Shown: positions 233 to 28,112 of the stretch, in pieces | Position numbering within the stretch: position 1 is the first letter of the stretch | How the letters are laid out: each line of letters opens with the position of its first letter | DNA from: an uncultured Alphaproteobacteria bacterium | Lineage (GTDB): Bacteria > Pseudomonadota > Alphaproteobacteria > UBA7879 > UBA5542 | Length of the DNA stretch: 64,000 nt | Assembly: GCA_903912365.1 (NCBI GenBank) | Contig: CAIWGV010000004.1 | Location: forward strand, 11,710-75,709 | Direction of reading: 5' to 3' | Program-made: the position numbers and the translations under genes | The notes under the pieces: model-generated | Told to the model about the DNA's origin: nothing | Database searches by the model: none | What the model saw: only the letters and a program-made list of their open reading frames with translations

Positions 233-1723
233 ATGAATGTAACTTTTTTCACCAGTAAGATTCCCACAACAGGCACTCTCTTTGTGGGTATTTTTGACAA
301 AAATGTTCTCTCTCCCTCAGCGAAAGAGATCAATAAAAAGACAGGCGGTTTGGTGGAGAAAGTTCTGAAGTCTTCCCATTTTTCTGGAAAAAAGGGAGAG
401 ATGCTCGCCATTCCAGCGCCAGAGGGCCTTTCCGTTCATCGCCTAGTTCTATTTGGAATTGGAAAAGAAAAAGAAATTCGGGAAAGTGATGCCATGGAAA
501 TTGGAGCTCATATGAGCCTAGAGATGCGGAAGTATCCTGAGGCCGAAATGACAATTCTTCTAGAAGATCTCCACGGGGAACACCTAAAGAATGACCGGCT
601 TGCCTCTGTTATGGCCACTGGGTTTTTGTTGCGTAGCTACGAATTCCAAAAATATAAAACCCAACTAAAGGACAAAGATAAATTCCATGTAAAAAAGATA
701 ATCTTTGGAGTGGACTCTCCCAAAGTAGCAGAAAAGATTTTTCAAGAGGAAGAAGCCCTTGTGAAAGCCGTGAATTTTGCACGGGACATTATGTCAGAGC
801 CGCCGAATGTAATTCATCCGGAAACTTTGGCCGAACGCTTGCAAGCCCTTTCCAAGATTGGATTGAAGGTGGAAGTCTTGGGCGAAAAGGAAATGAAAAA
901 ACTTGGTATGAATGCCCTCTTAGGAGTGGGTCAAGGAAGTGATAAAGAATCCAAGCTTGTCATCATGAAGTGGAATGGGGGGGATTCGAAAGAAGCTCCT
1001 CTGGCATTTGTTGGAAAAGGCGTGACTTTTGACACAGGAGGAATCTCCATTAAGCCTTCAGCCAAAATGGATGAGATGAAATATGATATGGGGGGATCTG
1101 CGGCGGTGGCAGGACTCATGTATATATTGGCGGCTCGCAAGGCAAAAGTAAATGCCGTGGGGGTTGTAGGGCTTGTGGAAAACATGCCCGATGGAAATGC
1201 TCAACGTCCTGGGGATATTGTGACCTCCATGTCTGGGCAAACCATTGAGATCTTGAACACCGATGCGGAAGGACGCTTGGTGTTGGCGGACGCTCTCTGG
1301 TATACGCAGGATAAATTCAAACCCAAGTTGATGATTGACTTGGCCACCTTAACCGGGGCCATCACCGTATCTTTGGGCAGCAAATTTGCGGGGCTTTTCT
1401 CAAATGATGAAGGTCTAGTTCAGAAACTTCGGGAGGCCGGAGAAGAATCCAAAGAACAAGTGTGGCAACTCCCGCTGGATGAACGGTACGATCGAAACAT
1501 TGATTCCCGGGTGGCAGACATGCAGAATATTGGCGCTCATGGGGCGGGCAGCATCACGGCAGCTCAGTTCTTACAGCGCTTTGTGAATAAAGTACCATGG
1601 GCACATCTTGATATTGCGGGAACTGCCTGGACGGATGAATCTCATATGTTCTCAGGAAAAAATCCCACAGGATTTGGGGTGCGTTTGTTAAACACCTTTG
1701 TGCGCAAATTTTACGAAAAGTAA
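233..1723 (+). CDS. pepA: Leucyl aminopeptidase (M17 family)
   Basis: 496 aa. The M17 signature NTDAEGRL is present, along with the typical VGKGVTFDTGGISIKP and MKYDMGGSAAV catalytic region. Confidence 0.9.
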   Translation: MNVTFFTSKIPTTGTLFVGIFDKNVLSPSAKEINKKTGGLVEKVLKSSHFSGKKGEMLAIPAPEGLSVHRLVLFGIGKEKEIRESDAMEIGAHMSLEMRKYPEAEMTILLEDLHGEHLKNDRLASVMATGFLLRSYEFQKYKTQLKDKDKFHVKKIIFGVDSPKVAEKIFQEEEALVKAVNFARDIMSEPPNVIHPETLAERLQALSKIGLKVEVLGEKEMKKLGMNALLGVGQGSDKESKLVIMKWNGGDSKEAPLAFVGKGVTFDTGGISIKPSAKMDEMKYDMGGSAAVAGLMYILAARKAKVNAVGVVGLVENMPDGNAQRPGDIVTSMSGQTIEILNTDAEGRLVLADALWYTQDKFKPKLMIDLATLTGAITVSLGSKFAGLFSNDEGLVQKLREAGEESKEQVWQLPLDERYDRNIDSRVADMQNIGAHGAGSITAAQFLQRFVNKVPWAHLDIAGTAWTDESHMFSGKNPTGFGVRLLNTFVRKFYEK

Positions 1724-1732
1724 AGGATCCCA

Positions 1733-2194
1733 GTGCAAGTTAGTTTCTATCACCTCACGCGCCTGAGTCTTGAGAAGTCTCTTCCTAAACTTTTAGAGAA
1801 GGTTCTGGCTCAGGGTTTGCGGGCCGTGGTGGTGACGGAGACGGAGGGGCAAACCCAAGTTCTCAATGATGTTTTTTGGACCTACCATCCCACCAGTTTC
1901 CTTCCCCACGGGACGGATAAGGAGGGGCGCGCTTCCGATCAGCCCATTTGGATTACTCCAAAGATTGAAAATCCCAATGGGGCTCAGATACTGGTGTTGA
2001 CGACGTTGCAGGAGAGGGAGAACTTTGAAGGGTTCTCTCGGATTCTTTATATGTTTGATGGGAATCAAAAAGAGGATTTGGAAAAAGCCCGGGTTCTTTG
2101 GAGGGCTCACAAAGGAAAAAATCATGGGCTGACCTATTGGCAACAAGACAAGGAAGGCAAATGGGTTTCCCAGGAACAGGTTCAAGGGTCCTGA
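1733..2194 (+). CDS. holC: DNA polymerase III chi subunit
   Basis: 153 aa. The N-terminus FYHL…VVV…VLNDVFWTY…FLPHG matches HolC. It lies immediately downstream of pepA, which is the conserved pepA-holC synteny. Confidence 0.75.
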   Translation: MQVSFYHLTRLSLEKSLPKLLEKVLAQGLRAVVVTETEGQTQVLNDVFWTYHPTSFLPHGTDKEGRASDQPIWITPKIENPNGAQILVLTTLQERENFEGFSRILYMFDGNQKEDLEKARVLWRAHKGKNHGLTYWQQDKEGKWVSQEQVQGS

Positions 2195-2325
2195 ATGTTG
2201 AGGGGACAGCTGTTGCAAAAAAGCATCTTTGTTTTTTTCCTTACAGAAAGGAGTTGACGCTCTCATTTTCCCATGAGATAGTTAAGTTAAGTACAGATTA
2301 AAAGATTTATAACGGAGGAATTTCA

Positions 2326-2619
2326 ATGAAAAAGTATCTAATAACAGTTTCCAGTTTGGCCCTATTGGCTGTTGTTGCTTCTTGCTCTGGCAAGATGGGC
2401 GACATGAACAGGATGAGCGAAAGTGAAGTTAAAAAGTGTATGCAAGCCTGTGAGAGACGCGGCACGAAGATGAAGCTCTCAAGCAACGATACTCGTGAAG
2501 GATGTGAGTGTGTTGACAGCTCTGGGATAGAAGACTTTACTGTGACTATACCTGGCAGTGAGATGGGTCTTGATAATACCACTGATAAGAACAGATCTAT
2601 TACGAAGAAAAACAACTAA
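2326..2619 (+). CDS. Small Cys-rich lipoprotein, hypothetical
   Basis: The signal peptide has a lipobox (LLAVVASC|SGK). A GGAGG ribosome-binding site sits upstream and an intrinsic terminator follows the gene. Confidence 0.5.
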   Translation: MKKYLITVSSLALLAVVASCSGKMGDMNRMSESEVKKCMQACERRGTKMKLSSNDTREGCECVDSSGIEDFTVTIPGSEMGLDNTTDKNRSITKKNN

Positions 2620-2642
2620 TCTAAGTAAATTCTTTTAAGAAG

Positions 2643-2674
2643 GGGGTATAGAGTTTCTATGCCCCTTTTTTTAT
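2643..2674. terminator. Rho-independent terminator (likely bidirectional)
   Basis: GGGGTATAG-agttt-CTATGCCCC forms a 9-bp stem, followed by TTTTTTTAT. It sits between two convergent genes. Confidence 0.5.
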
Positions 2675-2677
2675 ACT

Positions 2678-3235
2678 TTACTCTCGAACCGAAGTTAGAA
2701 TGCATTCCACGGCTTCTTCCAAATCCCTATGAACAAGGACAGGAGAAAGAGCTTCGAGCGCGGGGTTTTTAAGAGTTTTTTCCCCATGCCCTGTGAGAAC
2801 CAGATGGCGGATGCATCCAATCTTATAAGCGGCCTCTAAATCTCGGATATGGTCCCCAATCATGTGGGTTTCTCTGGGGTCCGCACCGAAATGGGCAATG
2901 GCTTCTTCCAACATACCGGGATTTGGTTTTCGACGATGGGTGGGATGGTCAGGGTGATCAAGACAGGTATAGATCATCTCTAGAATAATCCCCTGTTTTT
3001 TCAGTTCTGTTTCCATATGGGTATGGATTTCCGTTAGATCCTCTGGGGACAAGTCTCCTCGTCCCACACACCCTTGGTTTGTAACAATAGCCATCTTAAA
3101 GCCTGCCCCTTGAAGCTTTTGTAAAGCGGCAAAGGTGCCTGGAATAAATTCAAATTCTGCAAGAGATCTCACAGACTCGGGACGATCCACATTGATAACC
3201 CCATCTCGGTCCAAAAGAACAAGCTTTGTTTTCAC
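2678..3235 (-). CDS. gmhB: D,D-heptose 1,7-bisphosphate phosphatase (HAD-IIIA family)
   Basis: 185 aa. The HAD motif I DRDGVIN and a histidinol-phosphatase-like fold (…GDLSPE…MIGD) are present. Confidence 0.7.
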   Translation of the reverse strand: MKTKLVLLDRDGVINVDRPESVRSLAEFEFIPGTFAALQKLQGAGFKMAIVTNQGCVGRGDLSPEDLTEIHTHMETELKKQGIILEMIYTCLDHPDHPTHRRKPNPGMLEEAIAHFGADPRETHMIGDHIRDLEAAYKIGCIRHLVLTGHGEKTLKNPALEALSPVLVHRDLEEAVECILTSVRE

Positions 3236-3936
3236 TTTTTGAGTAATTTCAAACTCTCCGTTTCAATGGCGTGTTCCAATTTCTTCATGAAAGTTTCCTG
3301 GTCAAGTCCAGGCGGAATGGGTTTTAAGATATTGAGAACAATGGTTCCAGGATATTTGAGAAAAGTTCTGCGGGGCCAATGGACACCTGAGTTTAGAGCC
3401 ACAGGTACCACGGGAACTTGTAGATTTTTATATAAAATAAAAATCCCCCTCTTATATTCATTATGAGTTCCAGGGGTCGAACGGGTTCCTTCAGGAAAAA
3501 TAACCAAAGAGCGCCCCTCTTTGATACGCTCCCTTCCTTTAAAAATCATAGTTTTGAGCGCACTGGTGCTGCCACGACTGAGGGCAATCATACCTACTCG
3601 ATGGAGATAAAATCCAAAAAATGGAATCCACATGAGTTCCTTTTTTAGGATGAAAACAGGATAATGAAAAAGATGGTTTAGGGCGAGTGTCTCCCAGGCA
3701 GACTGATGTTTGATGGCAAAAATAACTGGTGTGTTGGGAATATTTTCTCGCCCCACAACTTTGGAGGAAATGCCTGCAATAACACGCAATATGAAAGAGA
3801 CCCACAGTGTCCATGCCCCAGGAATCCACATATAAAAAGGCTTTGGTAGAAGGAGGAGAGGGCTCAGTGTCGTGAGACCCACAATAGTGAAGAAGTAAAA
3901 AACAATATTAAAAACAAAGGATCTAAATTTTATCAT
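3232..3936 (-). CDS. plsC: 1-acyl-sn-glycerol-3-phosphate acyltransferase
   Basis: The acyltransferase motifs HQSAWE (HX4D-type block) and FPEGTRS are present. Confidence 0.8.
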   Translation of the reverse strand: MIKFRSFVFNIVFYFFTIVGLTTLSPLLLLPKPFYMWIPGAWTLWVSFILRVIAGISSKVVGRENIPNTPVIFAIKHQSAWETLALNHLFHYPVFILKKELMWIPFFGFYLHRVGMIALSRGSTSALKTMIFKGRERIKEGRSLVIFPEGTRSTPGTHNEYKRGIFILYKNLQVPVVPVALNSGVHWPRRTFLKYPGTIVLNILKPIPPGLDQETFMKKLEHAIETESLKLLKK

Positions 3937-4505
3937 GACTTACAAAACAGAAGAGACCGTGTGAGAATAACCACATATTTGTTATACTCCCACAATAAAA
4001 TCCGCCACCTTTTGAAATTGAAAATCCAGGAGTCATCCCTGAATATGGGAGAGAAGACGGGATAAGGCACAAGCTTTACCTCTGGCATACTTTCTTTAAG
4101 CTCTAGAAGGCTACGAGGCAGGTGATAATGGGAGGTTACAATGGTTAAAGATTTGAAACCATACTGATGGGCCCATCTTTTTGTTTCGTCAGCATTTTCA
4201 GCCGTATTAGTGGCAAAGTATCCCAAGGTAATGAGATCCTTCTTTTGGGCATAGGCTGCGATTTCATTGAACTGATCAGAAGTGTGAACACCGGATATGA
4301 GAAGCGGCGTATCGTGTTCGGTTTGAAGAAGAGCCAGTCCCGTCTTAATGCGCTCTCGCCCTCCCGTGAGAATAACAATTCCATCAGTCTTTTCAGTCGG
4401 TATGGGAATATGATTAATCCTGTAGAGAAAGAAGCAAAATCCAAGAGCCCAGCCTAGAAGAGACAGACTCAAAAAAACCATTAATAGTTTTAGAACGCGC
4501 ATCAT
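3933..4505 (-). CDS. DUF218/YdcF(ElyC)-family membrane protein
   Basis: A TM anchor is followed by ILTGGRERI…LLISG…TSHYHLPRS, typical of DUF218. I chose the MMRV start at 4505; the longer listed ORF (to 4610) would overlap ftsX. Confidence 0.55.
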   Translation of the reverse strand: MMRVLKLLMVFLSLSLLGWALGFCFFLYRINHIPIPTEKTDGIVILTGGRERIKTGLALLQTEHDTPLLISGVHTSDQFNEIAAYAQKKDLITLGYFATNTAENADETKRWAHQYGFKSLTIVTSHYHLPRSLLELKESMPEVKLVPYPVFSPIFRDDSWIFNFKRWRILLWEYNKYVVILTRSLLFCKS

Positions 4506-4513
4506 TTTCTTTC

Positions 4514-5410
4514 TTATACGCTGGCTCTTAGGGAAAGTCGAACGGTTAATTGTGCGGCGAGCATCATAAACAGGGTGATGAGGCAGGGAATCACAAGGGT
4601 AATGGACCAAACGCTAAGGCTGGATAATAAATTTTCTAGAAGAGGGATGTGGAGATCTTGAATAAAAAATTGAAGACCTAAAATTGTAAGCCCCGAGAGA
4701 ATAAATCCGATGAAGCTGCCCTTCAATCCAATGCGAAAGGCATGCATCTGAAACTGTTTGGCAATATAGGCATCTGTGGCCCCGACCAAATGGAGAACCT
4801 CGATGATATTCCGATGGATGATGAGGCTGGTCTGGGATGTAAAAGCAACGGTCCCCACAGCTGCCAGAATAATCAGGGTCACGATAGCAAAACTTATGAC
4901 CTGGGCAGATCGAGCAAGGTCCAAAAAATTACTCTGCCAGGTCAAGTGATCTTCCACCACAATATGGGGAGAAATTGTATGGAGGGCTTGTCTCAGATGG
5001 GGCAAGCTGAAGACACGACGATTTTGAATTTCCACGTCTATCAGTTGAGGGAGAAAAGAGGTCTCCAGGGAAGATTCTTTTGGGACCCACGGATTCAAAA
5101 TTTCCAGAATCTCCTGGGAACTTAATATTTTCACAGTGCCCACCCCTGCGGTTCGATTGAGAGTGTGACGGACTTTAACCTCAATTTCTGTGTGAGCTGA
5201 AGAAGATTCCTTTTCAAAGAGACTCCCCGCCGGCACTTGAATGGTAATATGATCTTGAAATCCCCGATTCCAATGGTGAATCAAAGTGCTGACAGATAGG
5301 GCTATCATGAGAGAAAGGGTAGCTAAGTATCCCATTAGGGCAACAATCCAGGGTAAAAACCGACTGGAAGGATCGGCTTTTAGAGGAAGGTCTAAGTGAT
5401 GGGTTGTCAT
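4514..5410 (-). CDS. ftsX: Cell division permease FtsX
   Basis: Four-TM topology with a periplasmic domain. It is translationally coupled to ftsE (4-bp overlap). Confidence 0.8.
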   Translation of the reverse strand: MTTHHLDLPLKADPSSRFLPWIVALMGYLATLSLMIALSVSTLIHHWNRGFQDHITIQVPAGSLFEKESSSAHTEIEVKVRHTLNRTAGVGTVKILSSQEILEILNPWVPKESSLETSFLPQLIDVEIQNRRVFSLPHLRQALHTISPHIVVEDHLTWQSNFLDLARSAQVISFAIVTLIILAAVGTVAFTSQTSLIIHRNIIEVLHLVGATDAYIAKQFQMHAFRIGLKGSFIGFILSGLTILGLQFFIQDLHIPLLENLLSSLSVWSITLVIPCLITLFMMLAAQLTVRLSLRASV

Positions 5411-6630: not shown

Positions 6631-9216
6631 ATGAATACGGCCCATATTCGAGAGTTATTTTTAAAGTTCTTTAAAGAAAAGGATCACACGGTTGTGCCTT
6701 CCAGTTCTTTGGTCCCCCATAAGGATCCTTCCCTTCTTTTTACAAACTCGGGCATGGTGCAATTCAAGAACTACTTCACGGGGCTTGAAAAGCCCGCTTA
6801 TAGCCGTGCCACCTCTGCCCAGAAATGTCTCCGCGCCGGGGGCAAGCATAACGATCTTGAGAATGTAGGCTATACGGCCCGCCACCATACCTTCTTTGAA
6901 ATGATGGGGAACTTTTCCTTTGGGGATTATTTCAAGGAAGAGGCCATCCATTTTGCCTGGGAGTTCCTCCACAAGACCATGGGGATTCCCCAAGAGAAGC
7001 TCTATATCACCGTGTTTTCGGAAGATGAAGAGGCGGCGACTCTCTGGAAAAAAATCGCAAACTTTCCGGATTCTAAAATTCTAAGAATTCCCACCACGGA
7101 CAATTTCTGGTCCATGGGGGATACGGGACCTTGTGGACCCTGTACAGAAATATTTTATGACCATGGAGACGCCATCTGGGGGGGCTTGCCGGGCACCAAA
7201 GACCAAGATGGTGATCGCTTTGTGGAAATCTGGAATTTGGTGTTTATGCAGTTTGAGCAGCTGGCCAATGGCAGCCGTATTGCCCTTCCCAAACCCTCCG
7301 TGGATACGGGCATGGGGCTGGAGCGCATGGCGGCGGTCATGCAGGGCGTTACCAACAATTACGATACGGATATTTTAAAGGCACTGGTTCTCGCCGCAGG
7401 GGAATTAACGCGCACGAAGCCAGCGGAACCCTATCTTGTATCCCAACGGGTTATTGCGGATCATGTTCGGGCCATGAGCTTCCTCATTGCTGAGGGTGTG
7501 TTGCCTTCCAATGAAGGGCGTGGGTATGTATTGCGACGCATCATGCGGCGGGCCATGCGCCATGTGCATCTCTTGGGAACAACAACCCCAACCCTTTATA
7601 AGATGGTTCCCCTTCTGGGGGAGAAAATGGGAAGTGCCTATCCAGAGCTGATGCGGGCCCAAGAACTTATTGAGGGAACCATTCGTCATGAGGAGGAACG
7701 GTTTTCTGAAACTCTGGGACGGGGCATCAAGATTTTGGAAGAGGAGCTTCGTACTCATGGGGGTGCTAAAACTTTCTCCGGCGATGTGGCTTTTAAACTT
7801 TATGACACCTACGGATTCCCCTTGGATTTGACCCAAGATATTCTGAAGGGGCAGGGCATTGAAGTGGATGTATCTCAGTTTGAATCAGCCCTCAAAATCC
7901 AAAAGGAAAAGGCTAGGGCCTCCTGGAAAGGGTCTGGCGACCAGACAGCCGGGGCTCTCTGGTTTGACGTGAAAGAAGAGGTAGGATCGTCTGAATTTCT
8001 TGGCTATCAAACGGAGGAGGCAGAAGGGCGTATTTTAAAGATTTTGAAAGACGGTTGGGCAATTGAAAAAGCAGGGGTAGGCGATGAGGTGCATCTAGTG
8101 TGCAGCCAAACACCTTTCTATGGGGAATCGGGAGGGCAAGCGGGCGACGCCGGCCTCATCCTGGGTCCCAAAGGGCGCGGCACCGTTGCGGATGCCCAAA
8201 AACAAGCAGGAGATCTCATCGTTCATGAAGTGGAGATTACGGAAGGATCTTTGTCCGTGGGCGACCCAGTGGAATTAAAAGTAGATAGGAACGGGCGACA
8301 GAAGCTGCGGGCCAACCATTCCGCCACCCATCTGCTCGGCGCTTCTTTACAGAATCACTTGGGCGCCTCTGTGGTTCAGAAAGGATCTCTCGTGGCGCCG
8401 GATCGCTTGCGATTCGATTTTAGCTCTAATCAGGCGGTTCCTAAAGATGTCCTGCGTCAAGTGGAGACAGAAGTGAATCACTGGATTCGGTCCAATGCGT
8501 CGGTGACAACAATTCTGACGACGCCAACCCAAGCCCTAGAGGGGGGCGCTCAGGGGCTGTTTGGAGAGAAGTACGGGGATGAGGTGCGGGTGGTCTCCAT
8601 GGGACCCTACTCTAAAGAGTTGTGTGGGGGAACCCACGTACAGCGTACGGGGGACATAGGGCTGTTTAAAATTCTCAGTGAGAGCAGCGTGTCGGCCGGT
8701 GTCCGTCGTATTGAGGCGGTGACGGGGCAGGCAGCAGAGGCTCATCTGAGAGAGTTGGAAGACGCTTTGCAACAGGCAGCGGAACTTTTAAAAACAAACC
8801 CAAAGGGGGTTCCGGCCCGTCTGACTCAGTGGATGGAAGAGCGGAAAAAGACCTCAAATAAAAACTCTATTTCCCTAGACCTATCTGTAGAGGAAATAAA
8901 CGGCGTTAAATTTGGAAGTCAAATTTTGGAAAATGTTCCGCCTCAAGATCTGAAGGAACTTATGGATCAAGGCAAAGCGAAGCTGGGGTCCGGCATCGTG
9001 TTGATTATTTCGTCTTTTGAGGGCAAGATTTCAGCCCTTGTAGGCGTAACTTCGGATTTGATGGGAACCCATGATGCGCGGGAGCTACTCAAACCCATGG
9101 CCGAAGTTCTCGGCGGTAAAGGGGGCGGTCGCCCGGACCTGACCCAGTGCGGCGGGACGGATGCGAGTAAGATTCCTGCGGCTATTGAGGCGATAAAGGA
9201 ATATCTGGCTTCTTAA
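6631..9216 (+). CDS. alaS: Alanine--tRNA ligase
   Basis: 861 aa. The class II AlaRS N-terminus (FTNSGMVQFK, GGKHNDLENVG), the editing domain (HSATHLL) and the C-terminal DHHA1 domain are all recognisable. Confidence 0.95.
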   Translation: MNTAHIRELFLKFFKEKDHTVVPSSSLVPHKDPSLLFTNSGMVQFKNYFTGLEKPAYSRATSAQKCLRAGGKHNDLENVGYTARHHTFFEMMGNFSFGDYFKEEAIHFAWEFLHKTMGIPQEKLYITVFSEDEEAATLWKKIANFPDSKILRIPTTDNFWSMGDTGPCGPCTEIFYDHGDAIWGGLPGTKDQDGDRFVEIWNLVFMQFEQLANGSRIALPKPSVDTGMGLERMAAVMQGVTNNYDTDILKALVLAAGELTRTKPAEPYLVSQRVIADHVRAMSFLIAEGVLPSNEGRGYVLRRIMRRAMRHVHLLGTTTPTLYKMVPLLGEKMGSAYPELMRAQELIEGTIRHEEERFSETLGRGIKILEEELRTHGGAKTFSGDVAFKLYDTYGFPLDLTQDILKGQGIEVDVSQFESALKIQKEKARASWKGSGDQTAGALWFDVKEEVGSSEFLGYQTEEAEGRILKILKDGWAIEKAGVGDEVHLVCSQTPFYGESGGQAGDAGLILGPKGRGTVADAQKQAGDLIVHEVEITEGSLSVGDPVELKVDRNGRQKLRANHSATHLLGASLQNHLGASVVQKGSLVAPDRLRFDFSSNQAVPKDVLRQVETEVNHWIRSNASVTTILTTPTQALEGGAQGLFGEKYGDEVRVVSMGPYSKELCGGTHVQRTGDIGLFKILSESSVSAGVRRIEAVTGQAAEAHLRELEDALQQAAELLKTNPKGVPARLTQWMEERKKTSNKNSISLDLSVEEINGVKFGSQILENVPPQDLKELMDQGKAKLGSGIVLIISSFEGKISALVGVTSDLMGTHDARELLKPMAEVLGGKGGGRPDLTQCGGTDASKIPAAIEAIKEYLAS

Positions 9217-12673: not shown

Positions 12674-12961
12674 AAAATTACTATAATGGCTGTGGATTTG
12701 AAACACAACTTGAAATGCTTTGGAGCCCTCAATCTGTGTCATCATCGCCCAGAGGAGCCTGAAAGAACTACGGTTGGATCGCCGAAAAAATCTTGACGAT
12801 TTCTCCGCGAGGGCGATGGGAAGAGCAACTCTTCTCCACTGAAGCTGGTTAGCCGAGGAGATTAATAGCGAAAGAAAGTTTCCAAATTTCTTCAATTCTT
12901 CTTGAATTCGTTAAGTAAATTCCCGTATATCTTTTTAAGACTTACTCTTCTGGAATTTATA

Positions 12962-15082
12962 ATGATTAAAAATATTTTATTTCTACTGATGATAGGTATA
13001 GGACTTGCTGAGGGGGCAGTTAGCGATCCTTGGGTTCAGCGCATGCGTGGAGATTCTTATTACAAAGGATTTGGGGACCCTCATATTTTACCGGCTCTAA
13101 AACAAATCCCTCCTGAACTCCGAGATTGGGTTGAGCACATAACCATTATTTCTGGTATAAAACTAAAAAAATTCATTAACTCAGAAGAAAGTTACGGCCT
13201 ACATCTGAGAAACTGTGAGGATTGGACAGCGACTTGTATCTCAGTTTTGAACTCTTTAAGAGATCTTCCCGGTTCTTCTCACTCCTGGATAACAGACATG
13301 ATAAAGGCTTATATCCCTGAGGATTGTCCTGCATTTCCTTGCCTTACAACCCTTCATACTTTAGTTAAGATCCCTGTTGAGTCTCAGCAATGGGTAGCTA
13401 GGATGGCGCAAACTTATAGAGATAAAGAAAATTCTCGTCTTCTAAATCAACTGAGAGAAACCCCCATAAATAGTCAAGAATGGGTGGAAGAAATGGCTCA
13501 GTTCCATATCAGAGAAAATTCTGATGCCGCTGCCTATGTATATCATTTAAGACAAGTTCCACCAAGATCTCAAGAATGGATGAAGCGCATGACTCAGCGT
13601 TACGTTAAAAGAGAATATAAGGAAAAGGATGCTCTGGGTATCCTAGAAGTTCTCCAAAAAACTCCTGCTGAATCTCAAGAATGGGTAGAACACATGGTCC
13701 AGACCTATATTAATGAGAGGTGTAGCGCACATAATAGGCATGATATTTTATGGAGTCTAAGCAAAGCTTCTCTTGAAGATAGAGGATGGATTGAGCAGAT
13801 GTCTCAACTCTATATTAAAGGAAGCGATAGCGGAGATGGTCGTGCTATGATTATATATTCCCTAGCACGCATTGAATCTGTTTCTCGGGAATGGGCTGCG
13901 CAAATTCTATCTTTTTTGATAGAATCAGACTGTGACAACACCTATTACACCACATCTAGAGATGGCCACAAGCGATATATAGGAAGTATTGGATGTCCAG
14001 CCTTCGTTATAAGCAAGCTGGAAGAATTATTATCGGATCTTCAATGCCAAGTTGATCTTTTGGAACCAGCACGTGCTCAAATAATGGCAGAATCTAACCA
14101 ATTTAGGGAAAGAAGCCCCTTAAAAGGGGAAGATATTGGAGATATTTTTCATCGAGTAAGTAGAGCTCTTGCCCAACAAGTTCGGATAAATCCAACAGGA
14201 GATAGACCTTTAGGACGCGCTCTTGAAGTCCACTTTGCAGCCTCTCTTCTCGTCCCTGCGGAAGAGAGGACCCAACCTCTTTATAGGGCTGTCGAAACTT
14301 ATATCAATAAGCTAGCTCTATCTCATCCAGTCCCTCTGGAAAGGGCGGTGTCTACACTCCAGGGTTGGGTAGACACATATGCGGATGAAGACAAAAAAGC
14401 TCTTTATCGTGAGACTGTTACAAAAGGGTACGGAGATGGAACAAACCCCGATTACAACCAGGAAATTACGCCTTTATTGCGATTTGTTGTCCCTTACATG
14501 GCAACGCTTCCTGAAACAGTTCTCAGGGCGTGGCTTCTGCCAGTCTTGCAGGAATCTGCAACGGCCTATGATGGAATGAGTCCCCTCAGTTGCGCCAAAG
14601 GGATCCAAGAAAGACTGACCATGTTGGGATTTAATGATTTGGAGGGAGTTGATCCCACTCTTCGGTCTCTCTCTCAATTCTCTCGAACCTTTGTGGGCAT
14701 TACAGACCGTGGCACACACGAGGCTGACACATGGGTGAGAGACGCTGTGGAATTTATAGGTCCAGAGGCAAGATTATTGATTCTGGGGCCAGAAAAACCT
14801 ACAGAAGAAATCTTCAAAGATTTGTTCCCGCCAGCCTTCCAAGCCCTTTCTAAAAGGGCGGGACTCAACCCCCTTTATGCCGACGCTCTTTTAAAAAATC
14901 AACGGATCCAAATGCACCTCAACATAAGCCTTGAGATGTACTACCAAGTGGATACGCATTACCAGACACTCCAGGAACAGGCGAGGGCCTTCCAAACCCA
15001 AGAAGAGAGACGAGAATTTCTAGCGACTGCAGGGACTCGACGTCTTGCGGCAGCAGAAATAAGGAGTCCTGAAGATATTTAG
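12962..15082 (+). CDS. Large secreted repeat protein, function unknown. Its C-terminal region is paralogous to the 23372-24883 product.
   Basis: A signal peptide follows the MIKNILFLLMIGIGLA start. It contains about 6-8 degenerate ~35-aa tandem repeats (xSQEWVxxMxQxY…). A C-terminal block (…PLSCAKGIQERLTMLG…DPTL) resembles the 23372-24883 product. Confidence 0.45.
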   Translation: MIKNILFLLMIGIGLAEGAVSDPWVQRMRGDSYYKGFGDPHILPALKQIPPELRDWVEHITIISGIKLKKFINSEESYGLHLRNCEDWTATCISVLNSLRDLPGSSHSWITDMIKAYIPEDCPAFPCLTTLHTLVKIPVESQQWVARMAQTYRDKENSRLLNQLRETPINSQEWVEEMAQFHIRENSDAAAYVYHLRQVPPRSQEWMKRMTQRYVKREYKEKDALGILEVLQKTPAESQEWVEHMVQTYINERCSAHNRHDILWSLSKASLEDRGWIEQMSQLYIKGSDSGDGRAMIIYSLARIESVSREWAAQILSFLIESDCDNTYYTTSRDGHKRYIGSIGCPAFVISKLEELLSDLQCQVDLLEPARAQIMAESNQFRERSPLKGEDIGDIFHRVSRALAQQVRINPTGDRPLGRALEVHFAASLLVPAEERTQPLYRAVETYINKLALSHPVPLERAVSTLQGWVDTYADEDKKALYRETVTKGYGDGTNPDYNQEITPLLRFVVPYMATLPETVLRAWLLPVLQESATAYDGMSPLSCAKGIQERLTMLGFNDLEGVDPTLRSLSQFSRTFVGITDRGTHEADTWVRDAVEFIGPEARLLILGPEKPTEEIFKDLFPPAFQALSKRAGLNPLYADALLKNQRIQMHLNISLEMYYQVDTHYQTLQEQARAFQTQEERREFLATAGTRRLAAAEIRSPEDI

Positions 15083-15981: not shown

Positions 15982-16968
15982 ATGAGATATTTACTTCCAA
16001 AGTCCTGGTCTAAGATTCTTTTTATTTCTTCAATTTGTATCGTTGTGTTTGTGGCCCTCGTTTTTATGAGGGCTTTCTTTTTGATGGACCTTTCCAAAGC
16101 GCCCCTTGAAAATCAAATTACGGCACCCGTTTACCTGATCTCGTACGCAGATGGTCCGGAAGTTTTCCACAAAAACCGAAAGATGCTTGTTTATTCAGGA
16201 TTGCAAAAAGGAGTCAGTCACTTTTTCAATTATAAGAAAGATATGATTGATCCCAAATTTTTAGAAAAACATAAAGACACCTTTTCTAAAAAGCATGGGG
16301 CAGGGTATTGGATCTGGAAGCCCTGGGTCATTCAAGATGCGCTGAAGAAAATTCCTGAAAACGCCTATGTATTTTATTGTGATAGCGGCTTTGTTTTTAA
16401 AGGGGATGTGAGCCCCATCCTAGATCTTCTCAAAACAAAGGACATGGTTCTTATGACCTATACGAATAAGGAACTCTATGGTCCCCTCAGTAAAACCACA
16501 AAGGAAGAAGCCTTTATAAAAACGGGATGTGATACCCAAGAATGCCGGAATTTTTATCTTCTGTGGGCGGGGATGATTTTCATGAAAAATACGCCTGCCA
16601 CCCGAAGCTTTATCCAGAAGTGGCTTACCTATTGTGAGGACCCCGAACTTTTGGGACCGGAATCAAAATATCTCCCCTCCCGTCATAACTATGATCAGTC
16701 CTTATTAGGGGTTGCCTATTACAAAAATCCCCAGCATATCGCTCTGGTTCCAGAAGAGGAGATTGCAGACAATAATATTTTTAGGTGGCATCATCGTCAC
16801 TCAAGTAGGGAGAGTGAAAGCCTTTTCTTTGATTATGAAAAGATCAGGGGTGTTGAGCGCCGAGTCATTAATAATGGCATTTTTAAAACCCTGGCCAAAT
16901 GGGTTTATAAGTTTTCAGAGAGCAAGCCTTCTGAGGGGCGCTCCCTTACGGTTATCTCAAGGGATTGA
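15982..16968 (+). CDS. Membrane-anchored protein of unknown function (tandem paralog 1)
   Basis: An N-terminal TM helix is present. The conserved blocks YLISYADGP, GAGYWIWKPW, YVFYCDSGF, MKNTPATRSFIQKWL and AKWVYKFSESKPS are shared with the next gene (about 60% identity). Confidence 0.45.
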   Translation: MRYLLPKSWSKILFISSICIVVFVALVFMRAFFLMDLSKAPLENQITAPVYLISYADGPEVFHKNRKMLVYSGLQKGVSHFFNYKKDMIDPKFLEKHKDTFSKKHGAGYWIWKPWVIQDALKKIPENAYVFYCDSGFVFKGDVSPILDLLKTKDMVLMTYTNKELYGPLSKTTKEEAFIKTGCDTQECRNFYLLWAGMIFMKNTPATRSFIQKWLTYCEDPELLGPESKYLPSRHNYDQSLLGVAYYKNPQHIALVPEEEIADNNIFRWHHRHSSRESESLFFDYEKIRGVERRVINNGIFKTLAKWVYKFSESKPSEGRSLTVISRD

Positions 16969-16976
16969 AATAATAA

Positions 16977-17954
16977 ATGAAGCGCCTATTTTTCAAATAT
17001 TGGGGTAAGACTCTATTAATTTTATCTATGGGAATTCTGGCATTTATTGCTTTTGTTTTTATACGACTGTTCTTTTTAATGGATCCGTCCGGAGCCCCCT
17101 TGGAGACAGATGAATTAAAGGAACCCCTGTATCTTATTTCCTATGCAGATGGGCCAGATGTTTTTCACAAAAATCAAAAAATACTAGCTTATTCGGCCCT
17201 AAGGAAAGGAGTTAGTCATTTTTTCAACTATAAGAAATATATGATTGATCCTGAGTTTTTGGAGAACCATAAAGAAACTTTTGCCCAAAAAAGTGGAGCA
17301 GGATATTGGTTGTGGAAGCCTTGGATCATTCAAGATGCCTTAAAGAAGATCCCAGAAAATGCCTATGTTTTTTATTGCGACAGCGGTTTTTTAGTTAAAG
17401 GGGATGTACGACCCATACTAAGTCTATTGAAGAAAAATGATATGGTTCTTGTTGCTTATACCAACAAGAAGATGTTTGGAACTTTAGGCCAAAATGTAAA
17501 AAAAGAAGCCCTGATAAAAATGCACTGTAATGAAGAGAAGTGCCAAGATTCTTTCATGATTTGGGCAGGAATGCTTTTCATGAAAAATACGCCTGCCACC
17601 CGGAGCTTTATCCAGAAGTGGCTTGCCTATTGTGAGGACCCAGACTTGCTATGGCCTCAAGGGAAAGACTCCAAGTCTCATCATCATTATGATCAGGCCC
17701 TCCTCAGTGTGACTTATTATAAAAATCCAAAGCATATTACCCTAGTGTCAGATGAAGATGTTTGTGACCATATTCTTAAATGGCATCACCGTCATCCGAA
17801 CGACGAATATACCCTATTTTTCCATAATGATAGAGTTAGGGGAGTGGAACGAGATCTTCTTCATACCAGGGTTTTCAAGACCATAGCCAAATGGGTTTAT
17901 AAGTTTTCAGAGAGCAAGCCTTCCAAAAGCCGTCCCCTTAAACCGGTTTTTTGA
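16977..17954 (+). CDS. Membrane-anchored protein of unknown function (tandem paralog 2)
   Basis: It is a paralog of 15982-16968 and starts 8 bp after that gene's stop. Confidence 0.45.
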   Translation: MKRLFFKYWGKTLLILSMGILAFIAFVFIRLFFLMDPSGAPLETDELKEPLYLISYADGPDVFHKNQKILAYSALRKGVSHFFNYKKYMIDPEFLENHKETFAQKSGAGYWLWKPWIIQDALKKIPENAYVFYCDSGFLVKGDVRPILSLLKKNDMVLVAYTNKKMFGTLGQNVKKEALIKMHCNEEKCQDSFMIWAGMLFMKNTPATRSFIQKWLAYCEDPDLLWPQGKDSKSHHHYDQALLSVTYYKNPKHITLVSDEDVCDHILKWHHRHPNDEYTLFFHNDRVRGVERDLLHTRVFKTIAKWVYKFSESKPSKSRPLKPVF

Positions 17955-22971: not shown

Positions 22972-23370
22972 ATGTCTAAATTATTCCAAGTTATTTACTT
23001 TAGTTTCTTTGTGGCATGGGCTATGGCCGCTGGGGCAGCCCATCAGGATGCTATACTCCAAGAAAGAGCCGCACAAAACTATGCACATTTTGAAAGAGAA
23101 GTAGGACAAATTTATGAACAAAGTCGTCATGTAACATATAGCGATTTTGCTTCAGCAGTTGACCTCGCTCAGAAAAACATTAAGGATTTTTTTGATAAGA
23201 GAATAAGGGAGGGAGGTTCAGAAGCCAACCGTAAGGACTGCATGGAGCAAAAAAAGAATCTAATAGAAAATCTTAATAGGAATCTTTTGGAACAAGAATG
23301 GAAAAAACTGCAAGTCTTATATCCCAAGCGAGAAGAGCAAGGATTGATTTTAAGCGTAGCCATAGAATGA
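22972..23370 (+). CDS. Hypothetical secreted protein
   Basis: The signal peptide is MSKLFQVIYFSFFVAWAMAAGAA. Confidence 0.4.
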   Translation: MSKLFQVIYFSFFVAWAMAAGAAHQDAILQERAAQNYAHFEREVGQIYEQSRHVTYSDFASAVDLAQKNIKDFFDKRIREGGSEANRKDCMEQKKNLIENLNRNLLEQEWKKLQVLYPKREEQGLILSVAIE

Positions 23371-23371: not shown

Positions 23372-24883
23372 TTGAGACGCCCCCCTTTTTCTGCGTTGAG
23401 CAGCAAATTCTTTTCTGGCCTTTCTAGTTATAGAAAAGAAGGATACGACGAGAATTTTCCTATTATGTGGGCCCCTCAAGGATTAAGTGTTGTGGCTTTG
23501 TCTCACGCTGTTTCTATCTCTGATTTTCGAAACCCTCATGAGATAGCGAATTCTATAAAAAATGACGTGATCTGCCTAAAAGGCTTGACCCCAGAAATTT
23601 TTAAAGAGCTTTTTTGTACCAACTTCTCTTCGGGAAATCCTCTTGAAAAAGTGGCCGAGAATATGACGCGATGGGACTTAGGTCAAAACATACGGCTTCC
23701 GCCTGAACGTTTGGAATGTTATATGACATGTCTATATGAACTTCGTGTGATAGATCTAGCTTCTCGCGATAGAAAAGAAATGAGTTTGGCTTTATCCGGC
23801 GCTTCTCCAGAGAAAAGAGGTTGGATTATAAACAAGATAAGAAGGGGAAGAGAGGGGTTTGGGCGCGTACCAGAAGGGAAGTTTATTCAATTGATCTCAT
23901 CTCTGATCGATGACCCACATTTGACTGAACAAAAAGTTGATCAACAATTTAATCGGCTGATGGATGCACATCGTCCCATGCCTCTCATGCTTCATATGCC
24001 CCAGCATCAAGGCTCCACCATGAGCATTGCGATGGAGGCTCATAATTATGCAGATCAAAAAGTGGATGTTCCAGGGGCTGCCTGCGCTGCAGGAGCCTCT
24101 AGTCAAATGAGGGTCATTGATGCTGTCTTTGGGCAAGTAGAAGGCCGTCTGGGAGCCAGAGCCATAGTTCCATTTTCTGAGGTTCATGCTGCATTGGGAA
24201 GATTCTCCTCAGCTCCTGCATTCCAGAGTGTATTAGAGAATCCCGCAGATCAAGACCTGATGGCTATCATTTACACTTTCTTGAAGGCATTCTATCCAGA
24301 CAAAGTTGATTTATGGAAAGCTCAGTTCATACGCGAATCAGAAGAGGCCTATAGAGGAAGACGTGATCCCACCAGTTGTGTAAAGGGAATTAGAGAACGT
24401 ATTATTACAGGGCTTCGGGGAATAGATTCAGAACTGGATCGAACCTTTGCGCAGGTGGAAGGTCGTCATTTGATGCGCGCCCGCGCAACAGGAGCCAACC
24501 CTCGAGAAAACCCACAAGCACTTGCGCGCCAATTGTTGGAGTTGGGTATTCGACCCACAACACCTGTTGCAAAAGCAGCGGCTCGCTTTAAATCGGACTT
24601 CGAGGACAAACTGAAGACCTATGGGTTGGAAGTAGATGCAGAATTCGAGGGGCAAGCAGATATCTTTGTAGAGCTTATTGAAGGGGAGCTGGAGAATGCG
24701 CAGAGTGCTTTGAGTCAAGCTCTGAAATCAGAGTTTAATAAGGGGAATTGGAAAAAGGCATTTAAAGCGATTAAAAAGCAAAACAGGGAAGGGCTTGTCC
24801 CGGCAGAGGAAACCCCCGCACAGCGTCGGGCTCTTTTGGCTAAGGCTGCCGCAGACCGTCTTGCAAGGACTTATCCAAGCTGA
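23372..24883 (+). CDS. Large hypothetical protein, paralogous (C-terminal region) to the 12962-15082 product
   Basis: The block …YRGRRDPTSCVKGIRERIITGLRGIDSELDRTF… aligns with …YDGMSPLSCAKGIQERLTMLGFNDLEGVDPTL… in the other protein. The start is uncertain (TTG at 23372 or MWAPQ at ~23465). Confidence 0.4.
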   Translation: MRRPPFSALSSKFFSGLSSYRKEGYDENFPIMWAPQGLSVVALSHAVSISDFRNPHEIANSIKNDVICLKGLTPEIFKELFCTNFSSGNPLEKVAENMTRWDLGQNIRLPPERLECYMTCLYELRVIDLASRDRKEMSLALSGASPEKRGWIINKIRRGREGFGRVPEGKFIQLISSLIDDPHLTEQKVDQQFNRLMDAHRPMPLMLHMPQHQGSTMSIAMEAHNYADQKVDVPGAACAAGASSQMRVIDAVFGQVEGRLGARAIVPFSEVHAALGRFSSAPAFQSVLENPADQDLMAIIYTFLKAFYPDKVDLWKAQFIRESEEAYRGRRDPTSCVKGIRERIITGLRGIDSELDRTFAQVEGRHLMRARATGANPRENPQALARQLLELGIRPTTPVAKAAARFKSDFEDKLKTYGLEVDAEFEGQADIFVELIEGELENAQSALSQALKSEFNKGNWKKAFKAIKKQNREGLVPAEETPAQRRALLAKAAADRLARTYPS

Positions 24884-25463: not shown

Positions 25464-26216
25464 TTACCTGACTGCTGGAATAGTTTTAAAATTGGTCACA
25501 AAATGGCCATTTTTGTGCTGGGTCGGCATATATTTCCCATCCACTTCACGTACGCTCGAAATTAATTGATATAATCCTACGTCTTTGCGGTAGGCCTCTT
25601 CTGGATCTTTATTGGAGAAATCTTTACAGCGTTCAAAAACAACCACGCTCCCGACGGTTAAGCCTGATCGATTGAATATGTCTTCAGGAATATAACCATA
25701 GTGTTGGGGGGCTAAATTATTTCCAAAGGGAGGACTGTTTGGATTCGAATGAATCTCTCCTACTACGGCCCCATGAACGGGATCTTGCGCCAAGATCACG
25801 CCTCTGTAATTGACCGCTATTTTTTTATACGAGGATCCCCACGGAAGTGTTTTCTTGACCTCATCCTCGAGATCCCTTTCATTTAAAGAAATTCCTGGTG
25901 TGGGGGGCACTAGATTATAATACACACCTGTCAGACCCGGCATCATTTGGAGAATTTCTATTCTCTCTTGTGGCGTTGCTTTCACAAAAAGAATTGCAAG
26001 TGCGGTGTGTTGAGGTCCCCAAAGAGCACTCAACTCCCTCGCCAATTTGGCCTTTGTAAAATCTTTTGTAAAATTTTCATTGAGGGATCCATTTTTCCAA
26101 ACCAAAACGGAGCCAGCATGGTTTTCTACCAAAGGGGACCGAGAGCTGCCTTTAAAAAAATGGGCCCCTGCCCCCAGACTCACGAGTATTAAAAAGAAAA
26201 AAACCTTAAGTTTCAT
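25464..26216 (-). CDS. Hypothetical secreted protein
   Basis: A signal peptide follows the MKLKVFFFLILVSLGAGA start. No recognisable domain is present. Confidence 0.4.
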   Translation of the reverse strand: MKLKVFFFLILVSLGAGAHFFKGSSRSPLVENHAGSVLVWKNGSLNENFTKDFTKAKLARELSALWGPQHTALAILFVKATPQERIEILQMMPGLTGVYYNLVPPTPGISLNERDLEDEVKKTLPWGSSYKKIAVNYRGVILAQDPVHGAVVGEIHSNPNSPPFGNNLAPQHYGYIPEDIFNRSGLTVGSVVVFERCKDFSNKDPEEAYRKDVGLYQLISSVREVDGKYMPTQHKNGHFVTNFKTIPAVR

Positions 26217-26423
26217 CGGCTCCCCCAAATTTTTTTATATAGGTTAATTCTACTTAATAACTCTAAAACTGTAAATTCTTTTGTGGGATTTCTCCTTTGG
26301 AGCCTATTCATCTTATGGGCAAAGTCGCCGTGCAAGCCTCATAAGGAGGCATTTCTACAGGCATATGATTGAGAGTTGTAATCATTTTCTAAATCTACTA
26401 AAGTCCTTTCAGAAACCCAAGAA

Positions 26424-28112
26424 ATGGAGATAAATATGAACGGGCCGATTTTTCTAATCCTTTTGATTGTATCTGTATTTTTCGAAACCTCCCATGGGGC
26501 TTCGGCGGCAGAAGAACAGGGGGACCTTCAGCGGTTTCAGAGAGAAGTTGTGGATAGGCAGTATGTGCCCATCTTTTCTGTGGCCGATTCTCGGGAACTG
26601 GATGTTATTACGAGAAATTTAGACTCTAAAGTCTGGCCCATTCTCCCCACGTCCCATCGATTTGAGCAAAGAGACAAGAAGTGGTGTATCACAAAGCATC
26701 GAGACGCGCCGGGAGCAGATTTGCATTTATATGCTTTTGGGGAAGATGCTCCCCAGAGTGTTAACTACGTGGTGCAGTCTTATGGGAGGACCACTTATAG
26801 TTATGCTCAGACTTTAAAAGATGACTGTAAGTTTTGTAAAAATAAAGTTCCCTTTGTCGTGGAACAAATTAGCTACATGGATGGGCACTGTATTGATCAC
26901 AGAGACACACGCCCTGAAAAGTTGGGAAACTATTATTGGCAAAATTCTTCTACTCATTCGACAAATCATATCCCTGAACCCCCTGGGAACTATTGGGGGC
27001 TAACTTGTAGAAATGCTTTGGTTAAAGACTTTAGAAAAAGGTTGGAGGGATACAGTCAGTGGGTTTTTTATCCCTCTAAACCACTTCTGACAACTAAAAA
27101 AATCCCCATTCCCATGGGAGTCCTTTTCATGCAACATGAAGCAGAGTCCTGGGAAATAATAAATGGATGGTCCATTCCTTGGGCAGATTCCCTGCACCGG
27201 TCCTCTGCAGATGAAGGACATTATCTAACTCAGCTGAGAAAATATACCCTAAATCATCACAGCCAGTCGGAAGCCCGGAAAGATCTTTTAGGTATAAGAG
27301 ATCGCTTTTTTCCGAAAACCTTTGTATATGAAAAAGGCCGATTGGATGAAAAGATTTTTGGAAGGGCGCTGAAGGTCCCGGAAACCCTGGATAATCCCTA
27401 CAGTCAATTCTCTCTCTATCGCATGGAAACCTTGGCTGACGAGGAAATCGTCCCTTCTTGGTCCCCCGCCACATTCGGGTTTTTTCTAGACCAGATGGAA
27501 CGGCACAAAGGCGACCCTTATTTTCGAGAGAAAACCGATTATTGGCAGAAACGGTTTACGAGCCGATCGGAATCTCTCCGTAAAAATGACTTCTCCAAAA
27601 TCATGGCCGGGGATGTGGCCATCGACACGCTCATTCAAAAGGTCCAAAGAGCGGAAAGTTTTGATGCGGATGATCGGGTGCAAGACCATCTGAGGCAGCT
27701 TAAATCTCATTCGGAAGTGAAACAAGAACCAGCGGCAGCTCCCCGGGTTGGTCCCTATGAGGATTACGAAAGACCAGTTGTTGTCGAGGTGGCCGCTGTA
27801 GCTCCTCAAGTCGAGCCTTCCCGTCCTCTAAAAATAACCTTTGGAACTGGAAAGGGTTCCCTTGAAACCTTAAAATCTCCTCTGCATGAGGACGAATTTC
27901 GGTTTCCCCGAAATCTTTCCTTGGAGATAACAGAGCGAGATCCTGGCTCTATTACAAGAAAGGTTAGCGCGTGGACTACGGCGAATAAAAGGATTTTAGA
28001 GGTGGCTTTAAGCAGGGGAACCATTACTGAATTTAGGATCGTAGGAAACATTTCTTCTGTTGCTCAAAAAGAGTTGAGGATTTTATTTGGTAGCAAATTT
28101 AAAGAAAACTAA
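26424..28112 (+). CDS. Hypothetical secreted protein (562 aa)
   Basis: The signal peptide is …PIFLILLIVSVFFETSHGASA. The start codon and first codons lie in an ~80-bp block duplicated from the fosA-like promoter and start region. Confidence 0.45.
   Translation: MEINMNGPIFLILLIVSVFFETSHGASAAEEQGDLQRFQREVVDRQYVPIFSVADSRELDVITRNLDSKVWPILPTSHRFEQRDKKWCITKHRDAPGADLHLYAFGEDAPQSVNYVVQSYGRTTYSYAQTLKDDCKFCKNKVPFVVEQISYMDGHCIDHRDTRPEKLGNYYWQNSSTHSTNHIPEPPGNYWGLTCRNALVKDFRKRLEGYSQWVFYPSKPLLTTKKIPIPMGVLFMQHEAESWEIINGWSIPWADSLHRSSADEGHYLTQLRKYTLNHHSQSEARKDLLGIRDRFFPKTFVYEKGRLDEKIFGRALKVPETLDNPYSQFSLYRMETLADEEIVPSWSPATFGFFLDQMERHKGDPYFREKTDYWQKRFTSRSESLRKNDFSKIMAGDVAIDTLIQKVQRAESFDADDRVQDHLRQLKSHSEVKQEPAAAPRVGPYEDYERPVVVEVAAVAPQVEPSRPLKITFGTGKGSLETLKSPLHEDEFRFPRNLSLEITERDPGSITRKVSAWTTANKRILEVALSRGTITEFRIVGNISSVAQKELRILFGSKFKEN

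Follow-up and report, generated by a model that had tools for sequence, protein, structure and literature searches.

The Holosporales are an old lineage of obligate symbionts of protists, and almost nothing is known of how their hosts are manipulated. The candidates for host manipulation listed in a 2025 review are limited to the type VI secretion system (T6SS) and a few periplasmic proteins of Holospora; the T6SS is widespread in the order and is named as the main candidate route, with little known otherwise (PMC11909080). Holospora, for its part, releases Sec-exported periplasmic proteins into the host in the course of invasion (PMC5911502, PMC9866348). Here, we describe a gene, p1, in a 64,000-nucleotide stretch of DNA from an uncultured alphaproteobacterium (contig CAIWGV010000004.1, positions 11,710–75,709; the window in what follows). 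The gene (12962–15082, plus strand, stop codon included) encodes a 706-amino acid (aa) protein made up of a signal peptide, a repeat array, a linker, a conserved C-terminal domain (C-domain) and a tail. A new repeat class and a new domain are combined here in a familiar effector-like architecture. We hold, with about even confidence, that p1 is a Sec-exported modular effector of an intracellular Holosporales-type alphaproteobacterium, where the taxonomy of its relatives and an alphaproteobacterial gene content point to the Holosporales-type lineage.

The reading frame of p1 is single and intact over positions 12902–15082 of the plus strand. An upstream TTG begins the longest frame, and the ATG at 12962 yields the 706-aa protein. 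The exact sequence is present in public collections as gene calls of 706 and 697 aa, with the ENA metagenome scaffold BUCK21-1_SAMEA6872854_METAG-scaffold_64, under accession ERZ18638863, as source, and it also occurs in a Logan assembly. An initial annotation, made from the sequence of the window, had described p1 as carrying six to eight degenerate tandem repeats of ~35 aa. The peptide strings quoted there are all found in p1 where they had been placed, and the repeats are borne out by three lines of evidence (sequence statistics, an HMM built from homologues and AlphaFold helix pairs), for an array of eight or nine units at aa 21–340 (13022–13981, plus strand), of which we count nine. The units begin at aa 21, 52, 104, 139, 169, 201, 236, 271 and 306 and are 30–52 aa long, each pairing an initial helix A (xSQEWVxxMxQxYI) with a subsequent helix B (xxILxxLxxxP). 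An expansion brings unit 2 to 52 aa, and unit 9 ends in a beta-hairpin cap.

The periodicity of the array is significant. Comparison of unit with unit gives a mean pairwise local score of 33.6, versus 17.1 ± 0.58 for shuffled units (z = 28), and the alignment of aa 139–235 to aa 236–340 scores 102 against a shuffle maximum of 45. A repeat hidden Markov model (HMM) constructed from the units of homologues, with p1 excluded, has p1 as its sole match among the 512 open reading frames (ORFs) of the window (E = 1.9e-21), and five p1 units match this model individually (at aa 137, 171, 203, 235 and 273, with independent E-values, iE, of ≤0.05). The best-conserved core of the array, judged by AlphaFold confidence (pLDDT) and by the homologue-only HMM (iE 4e-6 to 0.05), comprises units 4–8 (aa 139–305; 13376–13876, plus strand). 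No tandem repeat is present in p1 at the DNA level, and the units are therefore old and diverged.

The AlphaFold model of aa 1–380 (pLDDT 78.1, predicted TM-score (pTM) 0.73) contains a helix pair for each unit, with every SQEW motif at the exact start of helix A (helices 104–117/124–135, 139–151/157–165, 169–182/189–197, 201–214/221–233, 236–249/256–267, 271–284/291–303 and 306–321). Confidence is highest in the middle of the array, where 10-residue blocks over aa 131–310 mostly have pLDDT values of 82–97. An alpha-solenoid, raised earlier as a possible fold for this protein, is indeed what is predicted for the N-terminal half, in the form of stacked alpha-hairpins. A beta-hairpin and two helices come after unit 9, and the linker that follows the array (aa 341–415; 13982–14206, plus strand) is modeled as two helices and a low-confidence segment and is weakly conserved with three relatives (P0004, P0005 and P0019).

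The repeats diverge considerably between family members, as is evident from comparison of the p1 motif SQEWVERMAxxYIT with IPAEQREEVVxxAKxxLITDGMxG in the homologue P0009. Starting from one P0009 unit, an iterative search nevertheless reaches every repeat-containing member, p1 included, and these share the consensus [IVL]P.[ED][QE]R..[VF]V..A..LIT..M.G..R..IL..L with a period of 35–36. In P0009 and P0018 the units are nearly identical, suggesting that array expansion is ongoing in some lineages. Pfam has no repeat model that matches p1, even at E ≤ 1, and the homologues with regular repeats have no Pfam repeat match at E ≤ 0.1, apart from a sub-threshold TPR_2 in an unrelated part of P0014. 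A Foldseek search of the PDB with the repeat model returned nothing significant (all matches E > 0.9), and the sole PDB match of the repeats at the sequence level is a de novo designed toroid of 6x35 residues, dTor_6x35L (E = 0.0023). The p1 repeats are a new class without a described family.

The family to which p1 belongs is small. Exhaustive HMMER searching of 1.84 billion representative proteins (E ≤ 0.001) identified 17 family proteins, in line with a lineage-restricted family, a possibility raised in the initial annotation; about a dozen of these share only the C-terminal ~290 aa and four share only the repeats. P0003 (670 aa) is 45% identical to p1 over aa 417–696. Full-length members have a common plan, in which a signal-peptide-like N-terminus is followed by a run of ~35-aa repeats and then by the conserved C-domain. 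Protein searches that used a word index, run with p1 and with an alignment of the C-domain, recovered only p1, its paralogue p2 (described below) and one JGI protein. We found no description of the family in the literature, and no characterized housekeeping family matches p1 from end to end. The repeats, the membership of p1 in this family and its paralogy with p2 are in our view close to certain.

When one genome from each GTDB species was scanned with a sequence pattern, five loci were located. One is in a metagenome-assembled genome (MAG) of an uncultured Holosporaceae bacterium, where the gene is broken by an assembly gap and the signal peptide, repeats and C-domain are all present. An Alphaproteobacteria MAG contains two loci, and the product of one of these (L009) has a signal peptide, repeats that are degenerate, and the C-domain. 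Two loci lie on short, low-GC contigs binned as Chlorobiaceae (L006; PNNF01000058.1, 7278–8213) and as Algoriphagus (L007). L007 is nearly identical to part of L009, which comes from an Alphaproteobacteria MAG of the same project, and both L006 and L007 are probably binning errors. In L006, the C-domain is joined to another repeat of ~36 aa (NNHRxIMEWLL). The initial annotation had likened p1 to the repeat-containing effector and surface families of host-associated bacteria. This likeness stands for the named genomes with relatives, the Holosporaceae and Alphaproteobacteria MAGs, which are of host-associated types, but is too narrow for the C-domain, probable homologues of which also occur in giant-virus contigs. 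Homologue loci have no conserved neighboring genes, and the family genes therefore appear to be stand-alone.

Some of these loci have features of their own. P0003, the closest full-length homologue (L004, 2271–6575), adjoins a Tn3-family transposase, a phage-type integrase and a PRiA4_ORF3 gene, and a family gene can thus adjoin mobile DNA. The repeat region of L005 (1351–3598) is interrupted by a run of N. In L010, the gene is split (584–2305 and 2286–2882) and the C-domain runs on in a second, overlapping frame, a pattern suggestive of a frameshift or an error in sequencing.

With its tail, the C-domain accounts for ~290 aa of p1 and is separate from the repeats. The characterization of p1 as a repeat protein was thus correct for the array but incomplete, as it is this domain that defines the family. 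Its core (aa 416–640; 14207–14881, plus strand) is mostly alpha-helical with one beta-hairpin, and an HMM constructed without p1 or p2 matches p1 with E = 2.6e-73. Two motifs stand out in an alignment of 16 diverse sequences. Motif 1 is A-L-E-V-H (aa 420–424; 14219–14233, plus strand), in which His424 ends a helix just before the beta-hairpin and is present in 16/16 sequences. Motif 2 is W524...E531-S-A-T-A535-Y536-(x6)-S543-C544-A-K-G547-I-Q-E550-R551-L (aa 524–552; 14531–14617, plus strand). Eight residues are invariant in all 16 members, including the most distant: H424, A535, Y536, S543, C544, G547, E550 and R551. E531 is conserved in 15 of the 16 and W524 in 14, the two positions being D/E and W/Y across the alignment. 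The resulting family signature, which fits both p1 (H424, C544) and p2 (H224, C336), is the His of A.E[VI]H located ~100–125 aa upstream of E..AY...SC.KG[IV].ER. The tail (aa 641–706; 14882–15079, plus strand; columns 401–468 of alignment A1) includes the segment QTQEERREFLATAGTRRLAAAE. Its motif ETPEQRRAxLAxAAAxRL is common to p1, p2 (24800–24880) and P0003 and could be a C-terminal sorting signal.

The invariant residues look like an active site or a ligand-binding site, and the earlier statement that no enzyme motif is visible in p1 was too strong. C544 is the lone cysteine of the p1 C-domain, so it cannot form a disulfide within the domain. In the AlphaFold model of aa 380–706 (13-sequence alignment; pLDDT 77.9, pTM 0.72), which is helical with one beta-hairpin, C544 directly precedes the helix at 545–555 and is located at its N-terminal cap. 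Nucleophilic cysteines usually sit at the N-terminal start of a helix. No fold or family assignment emerged for the domain: Foldseek comparison of the C-domain model with the PDB gave nothing significant (best E 0.47, TM-score (TM) <0.3), PDB sequence and profile searches produced no match, and no Pfam, NCBIfam, PADLOC or PHROGs model matches either the C-domain or the repeats in p1, p2 or the homologues. That the C-domain is a thiol-dependent enzyme is a tentative assignment, and one that we place somewhat short of even chances.

An alternative in which the C-domain has no catalytic role is accommodated by part of the same evidence. The solenoid and C-domain of p1 could form an adaptor or scaffold, for example one that tethers or sequesters proteins of the host or of the bacterial envelope, with the His, Cys, Glu and Arg residues holding a metal or a ligand. 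Metal sites, too, typically contain a set of His, Cys and Glu residues, the C-domain is almost entirely helical with no enzyme fold matched, and many effector repeat proteins act through binding alone. However, a lone His–Cys pair is ill suited to form a structural zinc site, and an invariant sole cysteine that caps a helix and is accompanied by invariant Ser, Gly, Glu and Arg residues is an arrangement typical of nucleophilic cysteines. We consider a non-enzymatic adaptor unlikely, though it is the strongest of the alternatives to an effector with a catalytic C-domain.

The window also encodes the paralogue p2 (23372–24883, plus strand), which is 503 aa long when read from a TTG and 472 aa from the ATG at 23465 used in the public gene call. 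Its C-domain (24014–24880, plus strand) has His224 in AMEAH and Cys336 in TSCVKGIRER and belongs to a subtype with the sequence TGLRGID that is shared with L006–L009. The two genes are 8.3 kb apart, and BLASTP aligns their products with 22/61 identities (E = 1e-5). The C-domain HMM that excludes both proteins matches p2 with E = 4.8e-12 among the 512 window ORFs and covers both the AMEAH and SCVKGIRER motifs, so that the block of similarity between p1 and the 23372–24883 product, first pointed out in the initial annotation, is secure. A relative of p2 is the L008 protein of the Alphaproteobacteria MAG (32% identity over 157 aa, E = 2e-20). The N-terminal region of p2 differs from that of p1, with no signal peptide and no significant repeat. 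Judged by sequence comparison, p2 is a true but distant paralogue that shares only the C-terminal domain with p1. We also considered whether p2 is a frameshifted gene whose signal peptide is encoded by the 132-aa ORF directly upstream (22972–23370), and rejected this: the stop codon of that ORF (23368–23370) lies upstream of the only homopolymer run, and the frames overlap by 5 nt. The two are separate genes.

The C-domain does not appear to be confined to bacteria. A scan of JGI metagenomes found one virus-like contig (L013; Ga0233451_10017705, GC 34.5%) in which two tandem genes (1157–3157 and 3158–4888) encode DUF285 repeats (PF03382, E = 4.7e-123), then the C-domain and then a strongly basic tail; a RING-finger gene (530–1102, minus strand) adjoins this pair. 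Three further contigs with the C-domain were found in IMG/VR (L014–L016), and two of these are named GVMAG, which we take to stand for giant-virus metagenome-assembled genomes. The L014 protein (7116–8867) combines DUF285 repeats, the C-domain and a KKKRTT tail, and the L015 and L016 proteins have a proline-rich N-terminus, the C-domain and a basic stretch. The His motif is present at the expected spacing in all three (AFEVHN, AYQVHN and GHEIHN). Profile–profile comparison of the bacterial and viral members gives a probability of 97.8%, and 91.9% (E = 7e-7) when the eight-residue search pattern is deleted from both alignments; both scores are biased upward in that the viral members were found through the pattern SC.KGI.E, for which the masking is a partial control. 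Foldseek comparison of the C-domain model with BFVD has as its best matches uncharacterized proteins of Feldmannia species virus (E = 2.3e-3, TM 0.42) and Tetraselmis virus 1 (E = 9e-3). These matches are borderline alone and agree with the sequence evidence for viral members. A Pfam scan of the genes around the viral homologues found no hallmark genes, and the giant-virus assignment of L015 and L016 consequently follows from their GVMAG names in IMG/VR. Homologues of the p1 C-domain in giant-virus contigs are probable.

Export of p1 is suggested by its first 19 residues, MIKNILFLLMIGIGLAEGA (12962–13018, plus strand), a predicted Sec-type signal peptide with a hydrophobic core (maximum Kyte–Doolittle value of 2.96 over 11 residues) and no lipobox cysteine. 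AlphaFold assigns this segment a pLDDT of <50. Ten of the 11 full-length homologues have a p1-like hydrophobic N-terminus (P0003, P0005–P0010, P0016, P0017 and L005a), as does L009, and the signal peptide that had been placed at the p1 N-terminus is upheld by these equivalent N-termini as well as by the hydrophobic core. Composition and family conservation together make Sec export of p1 probable.

Export raises the question of whether p1 remains in the envelope. A periplasmic or envelope protein with a function for the bacterium alone, such as envelope remodeling, and with no delivery to a host would be compatible with a Sec leader and the lack of a recognizable signal for crossing the outer membrane. 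The gene also adjoins GT9 and GT4 glycosyltransferase genes of the type associated with the lipopolysaccharide core, which lie upstream. But these neighbors lie on the other strand and have no conserved association with homologues, the family has 17 representatives among 1.84 billion proteins with repeats that vary in number and type, and giant-virus proteins, which have no periplasm, also contain the C-domain. An envelope role is improbable on this evidence, and more so than the adaptor considered above. Downstream of p1 are rplU and rpmA, followed by two paralogous membrane-anchored proteins, an MFS transporter, der, a BamB-like protein and a TPR_21 protein. The GC content of p1 is that of the adjoining DNA. 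Promoter and terminator scans gave signals that are not above shuffle expectation, and we give them no weight.

The composition of the repeats bears on what they might bind. The array has an isoelectric point (pI) of 6.1 in p1 and 4.3–6.4 in the homologues, and is thus acidic, and the variable positions (9–13 and 25–31) are distributed over helix A and the start of helix B, roughly 10 positions in all. Acidic arrays with variability spread in this way favor protein binding over a TALE-like nucleic acid code. A programmable nucleic acid-binding protein of the TALE, mTERF or PPR type, with a C-domain that acts on DNA or RNA, would find some encouragement in the 35-aa two-helix unit, which matches TALE-likes, in the appearance of MTERF4 (E = 1.6) and TALE (E = 2.6) in the Foldseek list, in the basic tails of the giant-virus members, which resemble nuclear localization signals (NLS), and in the weak binding of host DNA by a Holospora periplasmic protein of 63 kDa (PMC9866348). 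The Foldseek matches are not significant, however (TM ≤ 0.38; for TALE 4hpz, E = 2.6 and TM 0.24–0.27), and no Pfam TAL_effector, PPR or mTERF model matches even at E ≤ 1. Variability over about 10 positions rather than one di-residue, and an acidic array in place of a basic binding surface, are likewise inconsistent with such a code. We rejected this reading on charge, variability pattern and lack of matches, and regard it as very improbable. An antibacterial role, as a polymorphic toxin or a T6SS cargo whose C-terminal toxin domain targets competing bacteria, has a probability just as slight: a variable N-terminus joined to a conserved C-terminal module and the wide distribution of the T6SS in Holosporales (PMC11909080) would suit it, but rplU and rpmA rather than an immunity-like gene lie downstream, PAAR, VgrG and Rhs features and PADLOC matches are lacking, a Sec leader is atypical for T6SS cargo and homologues occur in viruses of eukaryotes.

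We return to p1 as an exported effector with action in a host cell. In this scheme, the 19-aa leader, which is conserved in the family, would move p1 across the inner membrane. Residues 21–340 fold into an alpha-solenoid of eight or nine ~35-aa two-helix units, as sequence statistics and an AlphaFold model both show, and its acidic charge and the variable positions along helix A and where helix B begins fit a protein-binding surface. The C-domain (aa 416–640) carries the conserved His424, Tyr536, Ser543–Cys544, Gly547, Glu550–Arg551 and Glu531, a putative active site that would modify or cleave a protein of the host, most likely in a thiol-dependent reaction. Since the C-domain is joined to at least three other N-terminal modules, it may be regarded as the constant working part and the repeats as interchangeable targeting; the 35-aa repeats, DUF285, the ~36-aa repeat of L006 and the proline-rich region may replace one another in front of it. 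Release from the periplasm to the host would take place as it does for the Holospora periplasmic proteins exported by Sec. Presence of the C-domain in viruses of protists places the likely site of action in the eukaryotic host cell, and the sharing of the domain by protist viruses and intracellular bacteria, the narrowness of the family and the variation in repeat number and type argue for action there over a housekeeping role. A more specific proposal is that the C-domain, as a novel thiol-dependent enzyme fold, carries out the modification of host proteins (for example by a ligase, protease or transferase reaction in a ubiquitin-like or other host pathway), that it has been exchanged between giant viruses and Holosporales-type symbionts sharing protist hosts and that it is steered by interchangeable repeats. 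We consider this version speculative and, taken as a whole, rather unlikely.

Several observations weigh against an exported, catalytic effector. The export prediction for p1 draws on composition and family conservation, and Sec export is not universal in the family, as neither p2 nor P0018 has a signal peptide. No secretion system is visible in the window. The invariant residues of the C-domain could be structural or ligand-binding rather than catalytic, and the putative His424/Cys544 site was deduced from conservation and helix boundaries. The AlphaFold models were built on shallow alignments of 9–13 sequences, the viral scores carry the upward bias described above and p1 alone matched nothing among GTDB species representatives.

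Should the C-domain prove to be an enzyme, the known host-modifying activities would gain a new fold. The p1 family is a concrete candidate for host manipulation, being small and having a putative active site in H424 and C544, and the new helical repeat class could serve as a modular recognition scaffold. The evidence that protist giant viruses share the domain suggests a host target common to both groups, with genes passing between them within the cells of protists.

Other genes of the window deserve brief mention. Two tandem paralogues (15982–16968 and 16977–17954, plus strand) are 63% identical (E = 2e-160) and each is membrane-anchored at the N-terminus. Their only Pfam likeness is a sub-threshold one to the GT34 galactosyl/mannosyl-transferase family, which is mainly eukaryotic (E ~1e-4), and an NCBIfam scan of the 15982–16968 copy found nothing. 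Signal-peptide-like N-termini without a Pfam match are present in the products of 22972–23370 (plus strand, 132 aa), 25464–26228 (minus strand, 254 aa), 26424–28112 (plus strand, 562 aa) and 43281–45242 (plus strand, 653 aa). A search of 5.8 billion proteins with the first of these, the ORF upstream of p2, found only itself. The genome appears rich in orphan exported proteins. A 1227-aa class II (B12-dependent) ribonucleotide reductase with a TSCPD domain (48072–51755, minus strand) and a subtilase-family protein (52809–54281, plus strand) are ordinary genes.

It remains to compare p1 with described systems. Stacked antiparallel two-helix units of 30–40 aa are common to generic alpha–alpha solenoids (TPR, Sel1, HEAT/ARM, proteasome PC, TALE, mTERF and designed 35-residue toroids), but the consensus of the p1 family is unlike any described repeat and is matched by no Pfam model. 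For the C-domain, the order H424...E531...C544 is compatible with the His–acid–Cys order of cysteine peptidases of clans CE and CD, whereas the model is nearly all-helical and no peptidase structure was matched. The DUF285 (PF03382) proteins of giant viruses and of the virus-like contig (L013 and L014) have the same C-domain, with His and S-C-x-K-G-I-x-E-R at similar spacing, and differ from p1 in having a DUF285 array in place of the 35-aa repeat, no signal peptide and basic NLS-like tails. Compared by published description, the 63-kDa and 89-kDa proteins of Holospora obtusa resemble p1 in their Holosporales lineage, signal peptide and lineage specificity and in their proposed action in the host (PMC5911502, PMC9866348), but the 63-kDa protein reportedly has a DNA-binding domain, of which there is no sign in p1. 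The design of p1 is most reminiscent of the IpaH/SspH/SlrP NEL effectors of Shigella and Salmonella, in which target-selecting repeats at the N-terminus precede a fully helical C-terminal domain that contains an invariant cysteine, but the resemblance goes no further than analogy. NEL structures are absent among the Foldseek and PDB-sequence matches of the p1 C-domain, and Pfam finds no leucine-rich repeat (LRR) in p1. NEL effectors have LRRs and a CxD motif and are type III secretion substrates without a Sec leader, whereas p1 pairs its predicted leader with alpha-hairpin repeats and the sequence S-C-A-K-G.

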